A stretch of DNA of 64,000 nucleotides from Dehalococcoidia bacterium (GTDB lineage Bacteria; Chloroflexota; Dehalococcoidia; Lucifugimonadales; CAJWER01). The stretch spans positions 1,396,319 to 1,460,318 of the forward strand of contig CBDEVV010000017.1 in NCBI GenBank assembly GCA_965243655.1, written 5' to 3'. Below the pieces are notes generated by a model. That model was not told the DNA's origin and made no database searches. It saw nothing but the letters and a program-made list of their open reading frames with translations. Below, one piece after another: positions 5,332 to 60,548 of the stretch (the first letter of the stretch is position 1; each line of letters begins with the position of its first letter). The position numbers and the translations under genes were made by a program.

Positions 5332-6533
5332 TCCTCGCGAATGGCTTCGGCCCGGTCGGTGCGCTCCCAGGGAAGGTCCAGGTCGTCCCGCCCGAAGTGG
5401 CCGTAGGCGGCTGTCTGCTTGTAGATCGGCGCCCTCAGCCCCAGGTCCCGGATGATCGCGCCGGGACGCAGGTCGAAGTGCTTGTCCGCCAGGTCTACGA
5501 TCACGTCGTCCGGCGCGTTGTTCGTGCCGAAGGTCTCGATCGACACGGACATGGGCTTCGCCATCCCGATGGCGTAGGAGACCTGTATCTCCAGCCGATC
5601 AGCCAGACCGGCCGCCACCAGGTTCTTGGCGACCCACCGCGCGGCGTAGGCAGCCGAGCGGTCGACCTTCGTCGGGTCCTTGCCCGAGAAAGCGCCGCCC
5701 CCGTGCCTCGCCATGCCGCCGTAGGTGTCGACCAGTATCTTTCGCCCGGTCAGCCCCGCGTCACCCTTGGGGCCGCCTATCACGAACCGGCCCGAGGGGT
5801 TGACGTGGTACACGGTGTCGTCGTCGAGAAGGTCCGAAGGAATCGCGGCCGCGGCAACGTGCTCGATGAGGCTGCTCTCGATCTCCGCCTGGCTCACGTC
5901 GGGAGAGTGCTGTGTGCTCAGCACCACCGTGTCGACCCTCTTCGGCTTACCGTACGCGTACTCGATGGTCACCTGGGACTTGCCGTCCGGCCGCATAAAA
6001 GGAAGGAGGCCAGATTTCCTGACCTCCGCCATGCGTCTCGTGAGCCGGTGAGAAAGGGCGATCGGCATCGGCATCAGCTCGTCGGTCTCGTTGCACGCGT
6101 AGCCCACCATCATGCCCTGGTCGCCCGCCCCGAGCATCTCGATGCCCGCGTCGACCGCGTCCACCTCGCCCCTGACTTCCAGGGCAACGTCCACGCCGCC
6201 GGCGATGTCGCTCGACTGCCGGTTGAGAGACACGATGACCCCGCACGAATCGTAGTCGAACCCGTACTCCGAGTCCGTGTAGCCGGCGTCCCTGATCGTT
6301 TCCCTCACCAGGTCCGGCACGTCGATGCGGGCCTCTGTGGTGATCTCGCCCATTACGACCACCAGCCCGGTGGTCGTACACGCCTCGCACGCCACGCGGC
6401 CAGCGGGGTCCTGGGCAAGGATGGCGTCGAGCACTGCGTCCGAGACCTGGTCGCACAGCTTGTCCGGGTGCCCCTCGGTCACGGATTCCGAGGTGAACAG
6501 GTAGCTGGGCGACTCGCTGAGGCTGTACGGCAC
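5307..6533 (-). CDS. metK: S-adenosylmethionine synthetase
   Basis: [35 protein letters not shown] and [16 protein letters not shown]. The track start is 6584, but GTG 6533 is preceded by GGAGG (6545-6541) at 7 nt and gives a canonical N-terminus. Confidence 0.93.
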
Positions 6534-54553: not shown

Positions 54554-56032
54554 TCAGCGCCCGACCCCCTTCAGCGGCCCTACGATGGAGTCGGCCAACC
54601 GGGTCTCGATCTCCGGCGATAGCAGGGCCAGGTGCCCGTCGTCGAAGCGCTCGCCCTCTGCGACCATCTTATCGAAGTACTCGTCGCGGGTCGCGCGATG
54701 GGCAGGATCATAGAACAGGTTGGTCAGCTCGTGCGGGTCCTCCTGGAGGTCGTACAGCTCGCACAGGTCGGACAGGTTCCACACCAGCTTCCAGCGCCCA
54801 TCCGTCACCATGCGTTGGGAATAATGGCCGTTCCAGTCCCCGTGGTACTCGCTGTAGTTCACGTCCTTGTACCACTCGGCCTCGCCCTGCGTCAGTCCCA
54901 GCATGGAGCGGCCGTGCAGCTCGCCGGAGCCCATGTCGCGGACGTCTTCCCCTGCCATCAGCCCGACTATGGTAGCAGTCGCGTCCATGAGGTTGACCGG
55001 CTGGCTGGCCCGCTTCACCCTGCTGCCGCCGGGCGGCTTGAACAGCATCGGCACCCGGTATATCTCGTCGTACATATAGGCGCTCTTGCTGTCGAAGCCG
55101 TGTGACCCGGCCATGTCCCCGTGATCGGCCGTCAGGATGATCGCCGTGTCGTCGTACAGGCCCAACTCCTTCAGCGTCCTCACCACCTCGCCGACCTGTG
55201 CGTCGACCAGCTCCAGGTACGAGAACCCGATGGCCAGGGCGTTCTTCAGGTCCGATCCCTTCCCCTCGGGCACCCCGTACTCCTGCACCGCCCGCAGCTT
55301 CTTCTGGTTGATCGGCTTGCCCTCGTAGTCGTCGTACCTGTTGGGCCAGTCGGGTATCGAGTTGGGGTCGTAACGTATCCCCCATTCCTCCGGCACCATC
55401 CAAGGCCCGTGCGGCCCCGGCAGCGACGCATAGAGCAGGAACGGCCGCTCGCCGGTACGCGACCGCATGAAGTCCGTCGAGTACCTGGCTACCTGCACGT
55501 CCGGGAACTCCTCCATCGGCACGTCCAGGGTGCCGGCCGTCCCGAACGCGAAGCTCTGCACCAGCGGCCCCAGCGCGGTGCTGGGGTGCCCGTGGCCCGT
55601 CGCGAACAGCGGCGTGCGTCCGGCGTACGGCGGCCTGTGGGCGTGCTCGAACCGCGTTGCAAACAGGTCCGGCGGAGGCCCGATGTGCCACTTGCCGTAG
55701 TACGCCGTCTCGTAGTCCGTCTCGTCCGCCGCCCAGTCCTGCACCATCCGCATGTCCGGTCTGAGGTGATGGCAGTACGAGTACCGCGGCGTCGAGTTGT
55801 TGAACATGTGGTGCTTGTGCGCGTACAGCCCGGTCATCAGGCTCGCGCGGGCAGGGGAGCAGATGGCCGTCGGCGTATACCCGTTCTCGAACAGCGTGCC
55901 GTCCGCCGCCAGCGCGTCCATGTTGGGCGTGCGGACCATGTTTCCGCCGTAGCAGCCCAGCAGGTCCGGCCTGAGCTGGTCGCAGAAGAAGACGAGCACA
56001 TTCGGCCTGGTAGTTCGCGCGTCTGCGGTCAT
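54554..56032 (-). CDS. sulfatase (formylglycine-dependent, CxPxR type)
   Basis: NVLVFFCDQLR...TPTAICSPARASLMTG...LTADHGD. ATG 56032 with GAGGAGGA upstream. The track start is 56059. Confidence 0.9.
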   Translation of the reverse strand: MTADARTTRPNVLVFFCDQLRPDLLGCYGGNMVRTPNMDALAADGTLFENGYTPTAICSPARASLMTGLYAHKHHMFNNSTPRYSYCHHLRPDMRMVQDWAADETDYETAYYGKWHIGPPPDLFATRFEHAHRPPYAGRTPLFATGHGHPSTALGPLVQSFAFGTAGTLDVPMEEFPDVQVARYSTDFMRSRTGERPFLLYASLPGPHGPWMVPEEWGIRYDPNSIPDWPNRYDDYEGKPINQKKLRAVQEYGVPEGKGSDLKNALAIGFSYLELVDAQVGEVVRTLKELGLYDDTAIILTADHGDMAGSHGFDSKSAYMYDEIYRVPMLFKPPGGSRVKRASQPVNLMDATATIVGLMAGEDVRDMGSGELHGRSMLGLTQGEAEWYKDVNYSEYHGDWNGHYSQRMVTDGRWKLVWNLSDLCELYDLQEDPHELTNLFYDPAHRATRDEYFDKMVAEGERFDDGHLALLSPEIETRLADSIVGPLKGVGR

Positions 56033-56120
56033 CCTCGCGTCCTCCTCTCCCGTTCCCAAGGGAACTATCTCAGGACTTCTGCGGTGTTCTGACCCCGGGC
56101 GAAGAGCAGGGGTAGATTCG

Positions 56121-56151
56121 CTCGCCCTGAGCCTGTCGAAGGGCAGTGCTC
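56121..56151. repeat. short repeat, family C
   Basis: ctcgccctgagcctgtcgaagggcagtgctc between the two sulfatase genes, abutting the stop of the second. Confidence 0.65.
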
Positions 56152-57625
56152 ACCAGTGCACCGATCCCGTCGCCAGACCATACTCGTTGATGTCGACTGC
56201 ACGGCCGCCCCTGTTCCAGTGGGTCACCTGCCCGTCCTCGAACCGCTCGCCCTCCCCCAGCAGCTTCTCCCAGTATTCGTCCCGGGTCCGCCTGCAGGAC
56301 TGCTCGTAATAGAGATTCCGTAGCTCGTGCGGGTCCTCCGAGAGGTCGTAGAGCTCGTTCAGGTCGCCGAAGTTCCACACCAGCTTCCAGCGCCCGTCAG
56401 TCACCATCCGCTGCGAATAGTGGCCGTACCAGTCGCCGTGGTATTCGCTGTAGTTCACGTCCTTGTACCAGTCAGTCTCCCCCTGCGCCAGCCCAACCAT
56501 CGAGCGGCCGTCCATCTCGCCCGAGCCGATGTCCAGCACCTCCTCGCCGGACATGAGATGCGTCACGGTCGCCGTCACGTCCATCAGGTTCACCGGTTGG
56601 CCCGCCCGTCTGGTCTGGGTGCCGCCCGGCGGCTTGAAGAGCATCGGCACGCGGTAGATCTCGTCGTACATGTAGGCCCCCTTGCTCAGGAAGCCGTGTG
56701 ACCCGGCCATGTCGCCGTGGTCTGCACTCAGGATGATCGCCGTGTCGTCGTACAGGCCAAGCTCCTTCAGCGCGCCGACGATTTCCCCGATCTGGGCATC
56801 CACCAGTTCCAGGTACGAGAAGCACGCCGACAACAGGTCCTTCAGCGTCTCGTCCCGGCCCTGCTCCTGCCTGAGGTCCTCGTTGATCCGCAGCTTCTTC
56901 TGGTTGATGGGCTTGCCGTCGAAGTCGTCGTACCTGTTCGGCCAGTCGGGAATCTCCTTCGGGTCGTATCGTATGCCCCACTCCTCCGGGACCATCCACG
57001 GCGAATGAGGCCCGGGCAGCGAAGAGTAGAGCAGGAAGGGGCGGTCGCCCGACCGCGACCTGAGGAAGTCGGTCGAGTACCTGGCGACCATCACATCCGG
57101 AAACTCGTCCATCGGCACGTCCAGCGTGCCCGCCTTCCCGCCTCCGAAGCTCTGCACCAGCGGCCCAAGCCTCGAGTTCGGGTGCCCGTGGCCCGTCGCG
57201 AACGCTGGTGTGCGACCGGGATACGGAGGCCTGTGGGCATGCTCGAACCGCGAGTCGAACAGGTCCTGCGGCGGCCCGATGTGCCACTTGCCGTAGTACG
57301 CCGTCTCGTAGTCCGTCTCGTCTGCCGCCCAGTCCTGCACCATCCTCATGTCGGGCCGCAGGTGCTCGCAGTACGAGTACGGCTGCGTCGAGTTGTTGAA
57401 CATGTGGTGCTTATGGGCGTAGAGCCCAGTCATGAGGCTAGCGCGGGCGGGGGAGCAGATCGCCGTTGGGGTGTATCCGTTCTCGAACACGGTGCTGTCC
57501 GCGGCCAGCGCGTCGATGTTCGGGGTCCGGACCATGTCACCGCCGTAGCAGCCGAGTAGGTCCGGCCTGAGCTGGTCGCAGAAGAGTACGAGCACGTTCG
57601 GCCTGGTGTCCGGAGAGATTGCCAT
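56150..57625 (-). CDS. sulfatase (formylglycine-dependent, CxPxR type), tandem paralog
   Basis: NVLVLFCDQLR...TPTAICSPARASLMTG...LSADHGD. Collinear with 54554-56032 and identical at most positions by eye. Confidence 0.9.
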   Translation of the reverse strand: MAISPDTRPNVLVLFCDQLRPDLLGCYGGDMVRTPNIDALAADSTVFENGYTPTAICSPARASLMTGLYAHKHHMFNNSTQPYSYCEHLRPDMRMVQDWAADETDYETAYYGKWHIGPPQDLFDSRFEHAHRPPYPGRTPAFATGHGHPNSRLGPLVQSFGGGKAGTLDVPMDEFPDVMVARYSTDFLRSRSGDRPFLLYSSLPGPHSPWMVPEEWGIRYDPKEIPDWPNRYDDFDGKPINQKKLRINEDLRQEQGRDETLKDLLSACFSYLELVDAQIGEIVGALKELGLYDDTAIILSADHGDMAGSHGFLSKGAYMYDEIYRVPMLFKPPGGTQTRRAGQPVNLMDVTATVTHLMSGEEVLDIGSGEMDGRSMVGLAQGETDWYKDVNYSEYHGDWYGHYSQRMVTDGRWKLVWNFGDLNELYDLSEDPHELRNLYYEQSCRRTRDEYWEKLLGEGERFEDGQVTHWNRGGRAVDINEYGLATGSVHW

Positions 57626-57685: not shown

Positions 57686-59104
57686 CTATGACACCGGCGG
57701 CCGGAGGTGTGCCCAGGGACGGGCCTCCTCGAAGGCGGCCGACGCGGCGATTACCCTCTCCTCGTCTCCCCAGCGCCCAACGATGTGAAGGCCCACGGGC
57801 AGGTCCTCGCTCGTGAAACCGCAGGGTATGCTGGCGGCGGGATGGCCGATCATGTTTATCGGGTAGGTGAAAGGGAAGAACCCGCTGAACTTGTCCACCG
57901 CCTTCCCGTCTATCTCGGTCGGAGGCTCGCCCACGGGGAATGCCCCGGCCGACAAGGTCGGAGACAGCAGCAGGTCGTACTCGTCCAGCAGCCCGCCGAA
58001 GGCCGCCATCAGCTCCGCCCGCTTTCCCAGGGCCCTGGCGTAGCCGGGTCCGCTCACCGTCGCCCCATGCTCGATGCTGGTGCGCCCGTAGTCGGTGAGC
58101 AGGTCGCTCTTGTCCCCTATCATCGCCGCGTATCGCGCGTTTGAAACTGCACAGAATAGGTCCCAGAAGGCGTCGATCGGCGAGTCCAGGCCGAGGTCCA
58201 CCTCCTCAACCGTACATCCAAGCTCCTCGAACACGCCGGCCGCCTCGCGGCAGCGCGAGACCACATCCCGCTCGACCGCCCCGTATCCATAGTCCGGGCT
58301 CCAGGCAATCCTCAGCCCCTCGATTCCCGAGTCGGCCGCAGCCATGTAGTCTCCCGGAGCGACTCTGAGGCTGTTGACGTCGTTGGGGTAGTGGCCCGCG
58401 AGCACCTGGAGCAGCAGTGCGGAGTCCCGCACCGTGCGTGTCATCGGGCCCGACTGGCTGAAATGGTTGGCGAAGGGAGGCGACGCCACCCCTGCGTACA
58501 GCGGCACCCGGCCCTGCGTGGGCTTTATGCCGTACGTGCCGCAAAGGGCCGAAGGTATCCGTATCGAGCCGCCGCCGTCGCTGCCGGTGGCCAGCGTGCA
58601 CAGCCCGGCCACGACCGACGCCCCGGCCCCGCCGCTTGACCCGCCGGTCGTGCGTTCAGTATTCCAGGGATTCCGGCAGTGGTCACCCAGCCGGTTTTGG
58701 GTATGGCCGAGCAGTCCGAACTCGGGCGTATTTGTCTTGCCCAGTATGACCGCGCCGGCCGCCTTCACGCGCTCGACTACGGCCGAGTCCGCCGCGGGCA
58801 CGCGGTCCTCGAAGAGTAGCGACCCGCCGGTAGTCCGGAGCCCGGCGGACATCTCCAGGTCCTTCACCGAAATGGGCACGCCGTGGAGCGGGCCGAGCGC
58901 TTCTCCCCTCATCACGGCGTCCTCTGCGGCCCGGGCTTCCGCCAGGGCGCTGTCGGCCGCCACCGTCAGGTAGGAGTTGAGCTTGCCGTCTAGTGAATCT
59001 ATGCGTTCGAGGAACATCCCCGTCAGCTCGACGGGCGATACCTCGCGATCGGCGATAAGCTGCCGTACTTCAGTCGCTGGAGCGAATGCCAGATTGTCTT
59101 CCAT
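57686..59104 (-). CDS. amidase-signature family amidase
   Basis: GGSSGGAGASVVAG and GSDGGGSIRIPSALCG. Confidence 0.9.
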   Translation of the reverse strand: MEDNLAFAPATEVRQLIADREVSPVELTGMFLERIDSLDGKLNSYLTVAADSALAEARAAEDAVMRGEALGPLHGVPISVKDLEMSAGLRTTGGSLLFEDRVPAADSAVVERVKAAGAVILGKTNTPEFGLLGHTQNRLGDHCRNPWNTERTTGGSSGGAGASVVAGLCTLATGSDGGGSIRIPSALCGTYGIKPTQGRVPLYAGVASPPFANHFSQSGPMTRTVRDSALLLQVLAGHYPNDVNSLRVAPGDYMAAADSGIEGLRIAWSPDYGYGAVERDVVSRCREAAGVFEELGCTVEEVDLGLDSPIDAFWDLFCAVSNARYAAMIGDKSDLLTDYGRTSIEHGATVSGPGYARALGKRAELMAAFGGLLDEYDLLLSPTLSAGAFPVGEPPTEIDGKAVDKFSGFFPFTYPINMIGHPAASIPCGFTSEDLPVGLHIVGRWGDEERVIAASAAFEEARPWAHLRPPVS

Positions 59105-59177
59105 AGTGGCCGAAGTGTATCAGCCCCCGTTCCCACTGGCTAGTGGGGCCGAGGGCCTCATTGAGGTTGTGTGAGAC

Positions 59178-59193
59178 TGTATCATTTGATACA
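59178..59193. promoter_or_regulatory. perfect palindrome, operator candidate
   Basis: TGTATCA-TT-TGATACA in an AT-richer patch, 34 nt upstream of ATG 59227. GGGAGG is at 59214-59219. Confidence 0.5.
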
Positions 59194-59226
59194 TTACACA
59201 AACATCACTCTCTGGGAGGTCATGTG

Positions 59227-60159
59227 ATGGCCAGAGTGGGACTTACATCCTGGGAATGTATCTACCGGGCGCGGGAGGAGGGCAGGATTCCCCGTGTGTG
59301 GAAGAGGGGACATCTTAGAGAGCACCTGCAGGAGCCGGCGGGGCCATTTTCGCGTAATACAGTCAACGCCATTCCATCCAATCATTACATTACAAATACT
59401 GGCAGCGAGATGGGATACTCTGTCCGAATGGGAGACGATCCCAGGGTGTGGATGGTGGGTCGTGGGCAGTACCAATTGATTAGAGACCCCGATGACGACG
59501 CGGCAACCCAAGAAGCTGAGGCGAAGCGGGCGGCGAAGCTTGCCGACGAGCTTAGGTGGGGGAATGGGAGTGGAGGTGAACAACCTCGCGAGTCGTCGTC
59601 GCCAGATCCTGACCGCCCGGCTCATCCCGATCCAGAGGCCCAGGCGGTGCCGGGCAGTCCCGATCTCTATCCGTCGGCCTCCGTCCCCCTCAACTCGAAC
59701 GACCTTGAGCTCCTGGCTGACCGCACTACGGAGCAGAAGGCCCTCTACATCGTGCACAAGCATCTGCTCGCTGAGTACGGAGACCAAATGGAAATCGAGC
59801 TTGACCGGGATGGGGCCGACCTCCGGGTCTCCGTGCTCGGCCACACTGAAAGGATAGAGGTGATGGCGACTGAATCGTCCACGCTAGCTTGGCCTGGGTT
59901 GGAGGTGTCCAGCCAGGAGTCTCACGACGCCCTTGTGAGCGGGGATGCTTCGATATACAGGGTTGTTGAAGTCTCCAGCGCCAACCCCCGCATCTATTTC
60001 CTGACGCACGGAAGGCACTTCACTTTGGAGCCAGAATCCAGGTGGTCTGTGAAGCGAGTCCCGCAGGGCGGCAGCCGCTATCCCCTGAGGGGCGAGCCAT
60101 ATCGGTACGACCACCCCTTCGATCCCGTTGCTGCGGAAGAGTGGGAGGCGTTGGGATGA
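59227..60159 (+). CDS. hypothetical 311-aa protein, partner of the downstream PIN nuclease
   Basis: ATG 59227 is 7 nt after GGGAGG. The N-terminal 90 or so aa end in RVWMVGRGQYQLI. Then come a P/D/E-rich linker and a C-terminal domain with ELDRDGADLRVSV..ERIEVMAT. The acidic tail is DHPFDPVAAEEWEALG. No family is securely recognised. Confidence 0.6.
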   Translation: MARVGLTSWECIYRAREEGRIPRVWKRGHLREHLQEPAGPFSRNTVNAIPSNHYITNTGSEMGYSVRMGDDPRVWMVGRGQYQLIRDPDDDAATQEAEAKRAAKLADELRWGNGSGGEQPRESSSPDPDRPAHPDPEAQAVPGSPDLYPSASVPLNSNDLELLADRTTEQKALYIVHKHLLAEYGDQMEIELDRDGADLRVSVLGHTERIEVMATESSTLAWPGLEVSSQESHDALVSGDASIYRVVEVSSANPRIYFLTHGRHFTLEPESRWSVKRVPQGGSRYPLRGEPYRYDHPFDPVAAEEWEALG

Positions 60160-60548
60160 TCGTTCTCGACACACACGTCTGGGTGTGGTGGGTCAACGAC
60201 TCGACTCGGCTGACCGAAGCCCAGCGCCAGGAGATCGCCCGCAATGAAGACGATCTGATCGGCGTAAGCGCAATCTCCTGCTGGGAGGTGGCCAAGCTCT
60301 GCGAGTATGGACGCCTGGAGCTGCCCGTCGGACTGGCTGATTGGTTCCGGGAGTCTCTGCGCTACCCAGGTGTCTCACTACTTGAACTGACACCGGAAAT
60401 CGCCGTCGAGTCCACCACCTTGCCCGGCGCATTTCATAGCGACCCCTTCGACCAGATGATCGTCGCCACGGCCAGGATGCACGGTTGCCCACTGGTAACT
60501 TCCGACGACGAGATAGCCAGATATCCGCACGTGCGCACTGTGCGGTAG
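60156..60548 (+). CDS. vapC: PIN-domain ribonuclease (VapC-like toxin)
   Basis: ATG 60156 overlaps the upstream stop (ATGA). MIVLDTHVWVWW...SCWEVAKL...HSDPFDQMIVATA...LVTSDDEI, so all four acidic PIN positions are present. Confidence 0.85.
   Translation: MIVLDTHVWVWWVNDSTRLTEAQRQEIARNEDDLIGVSAISCWEVAKLCEYGRLELPVGLADWFRESLRYPGVSLLELTPEIAVESTTLPGAFHSDPFDQMIVATARMHGCPLVTSDDEIARYPHVRTVR

Follow-up and report, generated by a model that had tools for sequence, protein, structure and literature searches.

VapC proteins are Mg2+-dependent RNases, and in the solved VapBC and FitAB complexes the C-terminus of the VapB-type antitoxin wraps the active-site groove of the PIN-domain toxin. Ordinary antitoxins of this kind are ~70–90 amino acids (aa) long and carry a DNA-binding head of a known class (AbrB/SpoVT, ribbon-helix-helix (RHH), Phd/YefM or helix-turn-helix (HTH)). 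That antitoxins are modular and swap domains is an established principle (NetFlax, PMC10440598; Makarova et al. 2009, PMC2701414). The NOV_C/DUF3883 domain, for its part, was placed in the PD-(D/E)xK superfamily by Steczkiewicz et al. (PMC3424549), and the Snf2-helicase defence protein HmaA depends on it, as its nuclease domain, to act against phages (PMC11232893). Here we report a two-gene cassette at positions 59227–60548 of a 64,000-nucleotide (nt) stretch of a Dehalococcoidia contig (CBDEVV010000017.1; this stretch is the window, and all coordinates are positions in it). It encodes a PIN-domain protein and, immediately upstream, a 310-aa partner that joins an orphan N-terminal domain (the N-domain) to a NOV_C-like domain; the literature that we searched holds no link of DUF3883/NOV_C or of the N-domain to an antitoxin. 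We refer to this antitoxin/PIN pair as the window copy.

We read the pair as a VapBC-like type II toxin–antitoxin cassette with a composite antitoxin, in which the PIN protein is neutralised by a disordered antitoxin tail, and put the probability of this reading at about 70%. The antitoxin gene (59227–60159, plus strand; 311 codons including the stop codon at 60157–60159) and the gene for the VapC-like toxin (60156–60548, plus strand; 130 aa, start ATG at 60156) share four nucleotides, ATGA. The preliminary description of this DNA had proposed a coupled two-gene module of a 311-aa protein and an intact PIN nuclease; the ATGA coupling and the intact PIN domain stand, but the large protein has 310 residues, the figure of 311 having counted the stop codon. 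The peptides quoted in that description are all found, namely RVWMVGRGQYQLI (residues 73–85), DRDGAD (193–198), ERIEVM (208–213) and the C-terminal DHPFDPVAAEEWEALG. For the antitoxin start, ATG 59227 is preferred over an upstream GTG at 59143 on the basis of the aligned N-termini of the closest homologs. The pair resembles VapBC in the conserved acidic residues of its PIN domain, the upstream position of the antitoxin gene, the 4-nt overlap, the disordered antitoxin C-terminus, the organisation as a solitary two-gene cassette and the palindrome at its candidate promoter. In contrast, the antitoxin is 310 aa long, has no AbrB, RHH, Phd/YefM or HTH head according to Pfam and NCBIfam, carrying an orphan domain and a PD-(D/E)xK domain instead, and its PIN subfamily is weakly linked to solved VapC structures. 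The composite antitoxin is new; the modular-antitoxin principle is already known, so the system is not categorically new.

In the mechanism that we propose, the two genes would be co-transcribed and translationally coupled, and the 130-aa PIN protein would be the toxin, with an RNase activity that depends on Mg2+, as in other VapC proteins. The disordered tail of ~30 residues would fold onto the PIN domain and block its acidic active-site groove, as VapB tails do. The antitoxin would have been built up by domain accretion, with two globular domains in the place of the small head, AbrB-like or helical, that ordinary members of the tail family carry. The mildly basic N-domain would most likely bind a palindromic operator at the promoter and so provide autoregulation, and the NOV_C domain would most likely give dimerisation and possibly a second, nucleic-acid-related activity. 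Most family members have an intact D...ExK and may be catalytic, whereas in the window copy, with K213M and three nearby substitutions, NOV_C would be structural and its site probably dead.

A full-length AlphaFold2 (AF2) model built from a 35-sequence alignment shows the partner protein to be modular and divides it into five segments. The last of them (residues 278–310, 60058–60156, plus strand; YPLRGEPYRYDHPFDPVAAEEWEALG) is predicted to be disordered, with a predicted local distance difference test (pLDDT) score below 50. In the large family it follows the pattern YPLRGxPYRYxxPFxPVAxxEWE over ~30 aa and is acidic, with a mean net charge of −3.4. A genome scan with one genome per species returned 80 loci, from which we extracted the open reading frames (ORFs) and searched them with the window PIN protein. 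At 36 of the 80 loci the match to the query lay solely in its last ~30 residues, and these matches proved to be the C-terminus of ORFs of 63–91 aa from cyanobacteria, Acidobacteriota, Planctomycetota, Anaerolineae and others. Most of these small ORFs are followed, with a 4-nt overlap, by a PIN gene of the same subfamily whose product is 47–65% identical to that of the window. A tail profile built from a 46-column alignment matched 2,515 proteins, the best 120 of which are 54–99 aa long, most of them ~70 aa, and one match had been named a 'predicted DNA-binding antitoxin AbrB/MazE fold protein' by the Joint Genome Institute (JGI). The consensus of the tail is YPLRGxPxRYDxPFEPVAxEDWEALx, in which P, L, G, P and W do not vary; the N-terminal halves of the small proteins resemble short AbrB-type beta segments or helical segments, and no Pfam or NCBIfam model matches these heads.

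Among the closest known counterparts of the window antitoxin are these ~70-aa PIN-linked proteins, an unnamed family from cyanobacteria, Acidobacteriota, Planctomycetota and Chloroflexota with the motif YPLRGxPxRYxxPFEPVAxEDWE. The two kinds of cassette have in common the tail, the PIN subfamily, the 4-nt overlap and a ribosome-binding site in the W-E codons; they differ in that the window protein has ~275 residues in two domains where the small proteins have a short head. The tail is the sole segment that the 310-aa protein shares with the small PIN-linked proteins, and because small proteins of this kind stand ahead of PIN genes of that subfamily in many phyla, the tail is likely to be the PIN-neutralising element. 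Its earlier designation as a toxin-binding candidate is borne out to the extent that it is now the best candidate. Judged by the distribution of these matches, the 310-aa architecture is a minority form, derived from a large family of small antitoxins and restricted to one lineage. A constant tail with interchangeable heads, in several architectures for one toxin family, is also what modular antitoxins display.

The toxin matches the Pfam PIN family (PF01850) with E=3.5e-18. An alignment of 32 PIN sequences, that of the window among them, shows no variation at D5, E44, D96 or D117 and at least 90% conservation of D99. The window protein holds all five, in agreement with the complete acidic catalytic set ascribed to it before. 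We found 2,435 PIN homologs, the best 120 of which are 69–88% identical to it. The closest solved structure retrieved by sequence search of the PDB is the VapC 7by2, a weak match (E=1.4e-3).

The association of the two proteins is strongly conserved. The large protein has 117 homologs down to E=1e-23, mostly of 296–345 aa and nearly all from metagenome-assembled genomes (MAGs) of Dehalococcoidia/Chloroflexota; on its own the window protein has no match in Pfam, NCBIfam or PADLOC, or by sequence in the PDB. At all ~34 loci that encode a full-length homolog, a related PIN gene lies directly downstream on the same strand (E=1e-59 to 1e-83), which makes the pair a two-gene module conserved across genomes. 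Where both genes could be placed (60 loci, with large or small antitoxins), the stop and start codons overlap by exactly 4 nt (NTGA) in 53, the PIN start codon being ATG, GTG or TTG. Given the 117 homologs and the overlap in 53 of 60 loci, the pairing is not a matter of chance. A single full-length-type match lies outside Chloroflexota, in a MAG labelled Spirochaetia (L034, 5989–7221); its frame leaves the family after residue ~261 through a frameshift or an assembly error, so that the tail is lost, and an intact PIN gene follows. Some genomes hold two copies of the cassette, either in one MAG (L019 and L022) or on one contig (L035 and L036).

The junction between the genes is constrained in a further respect. 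The ribosome-binding site of the PIN gene, GGGAGG (60143–60148, plus strand), lies within the W-E codons of the tail, 7 nt before the PIN ATG, and TGGGA(G/A) recurs at the same fixed 7-nt spacing before the PIN start in most of the 60 loci, across phyla. Since the Trp-Glu codons form the Shine-Dalgarno sequence of the PIN gene, the end of the tail is under both protein-level and translational constraint across phyla. In all cases the tail ends three residues past WE. Translational coupling is inferred from the ATGA overlap together with the placement of the toxin ribosome-binding site inside the last antitoxin codons.

Natural deletion variants delimit what the cassette can do without. Proteins of 135–142 aa composed of N-domain, helix and tail occur at L042 and L044 and in the second pair of L084, and proteins of 169–170 aa composed of NOV_C and tail occur at L032, L035–L037, L039 and L040, loci in which no N-domain was found anywhere. 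A 241-aa protein at L043 has an internally deleted NOV_C domain, and the 250-aa P0238 combines a tandem N-domain duplication with a variant tail. Because each of these forms is followed by a PIN gene, we conclude that either globular domain is dispensable and that the tail is always present. The tandem variant suggests that the N-domain normally acts as a dimer. Two N-domain-type pairs lie ~2 kb apart on the L084 contig (4001–5163 and 7216–8024): a 250-aa tandem N-domain protein, with a variant tail ending ...DPLFEPMYISLDDFKP and followed by a PIN protein 50% identical to that of the window, and the pair with the 135-aa N-domain and tail protein. At L045 a 63-aa ORF (5971–6162) holds the region of the last NOV_C strand and the tail (...ILEPEPRWRVKPV...YPLRGKAYRYDRPFDPVALDDWGILQ) beside a short PIN fragment, and looks like what is left of the large architecture after decay.

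These variants bear directly on another reading, that of a two-effector module: the 310-aa protein would attack DNA as an effector or toxin in its own right, with the PIN protein serving either as its regulator or as a further effector. Most members do keep an intact PD-(D/E)xK motif, and of the two proteins PIN is the better conserved (78–93% against 57–70% identity), as such an arrangement could lead one to expect. Yet the tail is common to thousands of proteins that have no enzymatic domain, the best-scoring of them ~70 aa long, and in the loci sampled such small proteins occur directly ahead of PIN genes of this subfamily; moreover, forms that lack NOV_C (L042, L044) and forms with a dead motif (L032, L037, L040 and the window copy) keep an intact PIN protein. 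We therefore regard a pair of effectors as most unlikely and retain the composite antitoxin as the better description of the large protein.

The C-terminal globular domain of that antitoxin (residues ~149–277, 59671–60057, plus strand) is, by family profile and model, of the PD-(D/E)xK type and NOV_C/DUF3883-like. PF13020 (NOV_C) matches 25 of 35 aligned relatives at E<=0.1, with a best value of 1.3e-7, and ~15 of the 117 homologs carry a precomputed PF13020 assignment; the window protein itself has no match at E<=1. The AF2 model has the alpha-beta-beta-beta-alpha-beta core order of the superfamily (helix 168–187, strands 188–192, 199–203 and 206–215, helix 230–238, strand 241–247), with block-mean pLDDT values of 79–93. 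Foldseek matches in the PDB were weak (best E=0.04–0.3) and fell mostly on PD-(D/E)xK enzymes, including Hjc resolvases, MGME1, HincII and other restriction enzymes and a splicing endonuclease, with unrelated condensation domains of non-ribosomal peptide synthetases (NRPS) interspersed. In the model D198 directly precedes strand 2 and E211-x-K213 lies within strand 3, the canonical positions. The domain shares with NOV_C domains such as the HmaA C-terminus a Pfam match in most relatives, the core fold and the E...D...ExK residues (PMC3424549; PMC11232893). Unlike HmaA, the window family has it inside an antitoxin and without an ATPase or helicase fusion, and unlike a typical NOV_C domain the window copy lacks the Lys and has a Pfam match of its own below reporting level. 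The domain is acidic, with a mean net charge of −3.9 (−9 in the window copy).

Counts in 107 full-length homologs show how far the motif (window residues E169, D198, E211 and M213, the last being K213 in the family) is kept: E169 is present in 88, D198 in 99, E211 in 102 and K213 in 92, so that the D...ExK residues are conserved at 86–95%. Methionine at 213 occurs in the window copy alone, which retains D198 and E211 and departs from the consensus nearby at E192L, D204L and G214A, whereas its closest relative (83% identity) keeps all four consensus residues. Because of K213M and these three substitutions, the window NOV_C domain is probably catalytically inactive. The PD-(D/E)xK-like core with Met in place of Lys, proposed at the outset from spacing, is thus upheld. 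A second proposal, that the same Met might serve as an internal start for a short antitoxin, is rejected as a family feature, Met being unique among the 107 homologs and Lys present in 92; the shorter antitoxins of the family are separate gene architectures, and in those of 169 aa ExK is mostly degraded to R..N, Q..S or R..S.

Conservation of the motif raises the question of whether the cassette senses infection. Here the NOV_C domain, with or without the N-domain, would recognise or cut invading nucleic acid or a phage protein, and that engagement, or the resulting degradation of the antitoxin, would free the PIN RNase and halt the infected cell. A D...ExK motif kept in 86–95% of 107 members does suggest a selected activity, and the requirement for NOV_C in HmaA anti-phage activity provides a precedent (PMC11232893). 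Set against this, neither protein matches any defence model in PADLOC-DB 2.0 at E<=1, no relatives were found in IMG/VR viral contigs, and the pair has outlived repeated loss of the Lys (absent in 15 of 107) as well as degradation of the motif, seen in the window copy and in most forms of 169 aa. We consider this main rival, a nuclease-fold domain acting as sensor or effector, unlikely. We think it less likely again that the cassette is a previously unrecognised two-gene abortive-infection system in which NOV_C, its catalytic site intact in most members, and the N-domain together detect or cleave invading nucleic acid and thereby release the PIN protein; a single polypeptide would then unite sensor, nuclease and toxin-inhibiting tail.

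Genomic context can be read in favour of either a sensor or an ordinary toxin–antitoxin cassette. On three independent contigs, gene calls place a solitary two-gene cassette among different housekeeping neighbours: mfd and a metallo-beta-lactamase-fold gene on one, a surA-like gene and an ornithine cyclodeaminase gene on another, and yebC/ruvC and rimM on the third. All three of these non-syntenic contexts, the only ones inspected, contain genes for restriction-modification, GmrSD, a transposase or an integrase within 8 kb, which would suit a defence role; the immediate neighbours are nonetheless housekeeping genes, and within the window lineage the synteny of the locus is stable. The conserved pairing of a co-oriented, coupled upstream gene with the PIN gene is what a VapBC-like cassette should present.

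The N-domain (residues ~5–88, 59239–59490, plus strand) is modelled with pLDDT 85–94 (block means of 84–92 in the full-length model) as an H-b-H-H-b...b-hairpin (H, helix; b, strand) that ends in WxVGRGQ(F/Y)QLI; modelled alone, it reaches a pLDDT of 87.5. It is followed by a long alpha-helix (residues ~89–113, 59491–59565, plus strand; AF2 helix 92–113) and by a linker rich in Pro, Asp, Glu and Ser (residues ~114–148, 59566–59670, plus strand), predicted to be disordered with pLDDT below 50 over 114–146 and poorly conserved, the relatives averaging 23% identity to the window protein. The first segment had been compared with Mrr_N-like winged-helix modules. That assignment finds no support: none of 35 members has a Pfam match in this domain at E<=0.1, Mrr_N and other winged-helix families included, a profile search of the PDB found nothing, and Foldseek with the separate model gave no meaningful match, the best being EF-hand proteins in the PDB (E=2.1) and a BFVD entry at E=0.68. 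The H-b-H-H...b-hairpin order is compatible, in the model and on topology alone, with a winged helix bearing an insert.

The N-domain is an orphan domain, whose profile found just 125 matches among 1.84 billion representative proteins. These comprise stand-alone proteins of ~85–115 aa, N-terminal fusions to unrelated regions of 200–250 residues without Pfam annotation, C-terminal fusions and the PIN-linked forms. C-terminal placements were seen in P0256 (202 aa) and in P0248, P0252, P0294 and P0299 (~330 aa); one of the C-terminal N-domains comes after DUF2442, and in the ~330-aa proteins the N-terminal region has no annotation. The N-domain is mildly basic, its net charge averaging +3.2. We infer with moderate confidence that it is a DNA-binding or regulatory head, although no head of a known VapB class is matched in Pfam, NCBIfam or Foldseek. 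DNA binding as such is a guess, because there is neither similarity to DNA-binding folds nor a clear code linking upstream repeats to N-domain type.

Upstream of the antitoxin gene, a candidate promoter can be read from the sequence (59167–59195, plus strand), with a -35-like TTGTGT (59167–59172), a 17-nt spacer and a -10-like TACATT (59190–59195); a consensus promoter scan called no promoter there. A perfect palindrome, TGTATCA-tt-TGATACA (59178–59193), overlaps the candidate -10 box and is a candidate operator, and a Shine-Dalgarno sequence, GGGAGG (59214–59219, plus strand), lies 7 nt before the antitoxin ATG. Of 29 non-redundant upstream regions from homologous loci, 14 contain TTGACA (1.2 expected from shuffles), at the place equivalent to the window -35, and 8–10 contain hexamers of the ACATTA/CATTAC type (~2 expected); the latter enrichment may simply be the -10 region. 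After the -35 box and before the ribosome-binding site, many of these regions contain palindromes or direct repeats whose sequences differ, for example ATACATTacAATGTAT in L001 and TATGGTATGCTA..TAGCATACCATA in L021/L027.

Several observations weigh against the cassette being a VapBC-like system with a composite antitoxin. Foldseek detects no resemblance of the N-domain to a DNA-binding fold in the PDB or BFVD, and the upstream repeats vary by locus, with no consistent link to N-domain type found. PDB searches returned no close solved structure for the tail or the PIN subfamily, the match of the toxin to 7by2 being weak. Across 31 gene pairs, identity in each antitoxin segment correlates with identity in the PIN protein to a similar degree (Spearman 0.38–0.60), so that the tail does not stand out by covariation. 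Finally, conservation of D...ExK at 86–95% is not explained by a purely structural role of the NOV_C domain.

The evolution of the locus can be followed in six related genomes in which the pair occupies the same site, in the order sulfatase, sulfatase, amidase, pair, comF, NHL-repeat gene, dnaE. Relative to the window, the flanking proteins in these genomes are 82–98% identical, the PIN protein 78–93% and the antitoxin 57–70%; within the antitoxin of P0005–P0009 the N-domain is 42–49%, NOV_C 73–82% and the tail 76–94% identical. At the DNA level (window 59100–60300), the promoter and N-domain blocks are 49–72% identical to L001, whereas the 3′ half of NOV_C, the tail and the 5′ half of the PIN gene are 95–99% identical, above the 81–91% of the flanking amidase gene; L004 has a mosaic pattern unlike that of L001. 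The same interval was also compared with L003–L005 and L007, and is sharply mosaic inside the syntenic locus. Such mosaic divergence indicates allelic recombination, and the alignments suggest either intragenic recombination among alleles or gene conversion within the antitoxin gene. Intragenic recombination among alleles is typical of modular antitoxin and conflict genes. The G+C content is 0.55–0.62 over the cassette and promoter (window 59000–60400) against 0.65–0.69 in the flanking genes. An antitoxin that is 57–70% identical between flanks that are 82–98% identical, in mosaic DNA, displays patterns common in conflict genes and would accord with the sensor alternative as well, but ordinary antitoxins also typically evolve fast and recombine.

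The same comparison speaks to whether the module is domesticated or decaying, with an attenuated PIN protein or a large protein co-opted as a transcription factor, and vertical inheritance of the locus. The chromosomal site is identical in the six related genomes, four conserved positions around the active site are substituted in the window copy, and no canonical promoter was called, all of which would fit such a scenario. However, both ORFs are intact, the window PIN protein holds all residues that are invariant in the subfamily, the overlap and the ribosome-binding site are preserved, and the DNA of the C-terminal domain, tail and PIN 5′ region is 95–99% identical to L001. Identity above that of the flanking genes points to recent exchange or strong constraint, not to decay, and we hold domestication or decay to be very unlikely.

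If the pair is indeed a VapBC-like cassette, its interest lies in the finding that the tail of one large family of PIN antitoxins attaches to very different heads, including a restriction-endonuclease fold and a rare orphan domain. The natural series of variants (head-less, N-domain only, NOV_C only, both, and tandem N-domain) offers a means of probing the part of the antitoxin that does not neutralise, for which autoregulation, dimerisation and sensing are candidate roles. The cassette also gives the orphan N-domain its first functional context and NOV_C/DUF3883 an unusual one, and it enlarges the set of toxin–antitoxin systems known from uncultured Dehalococcoidia/SAR202-type Chloroflexota. 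Were the nuclease domain a trigger sensor after all, the pair would represent a compact new defence design. We expect these points to interest mainly specialists in toxin–antitoxin and defence systems.

The surroundings of the window copy agree with the neighbours first described. A divergent amidase gene (PF01425) on the minus strand flanks the pair on one side, and on the other lies a convergent minus-strand gene for a ComF-like protein, composed of a double zinc ribbon and a phosphoribosyltransferase. A second copy of the PIN protein, the tail or the N-domain was not found within the window. Beyond the amidase gene, two tandem paralogous sulfatase genes occupy the minus strand at 54554–56059 and 56150–57625. 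Of the six syntenic Dehalococcoidia genomes, five keep both, the contig of L002 stopping short of them, and the single paralog that was scanned contains PF00884 and SGSH_C.

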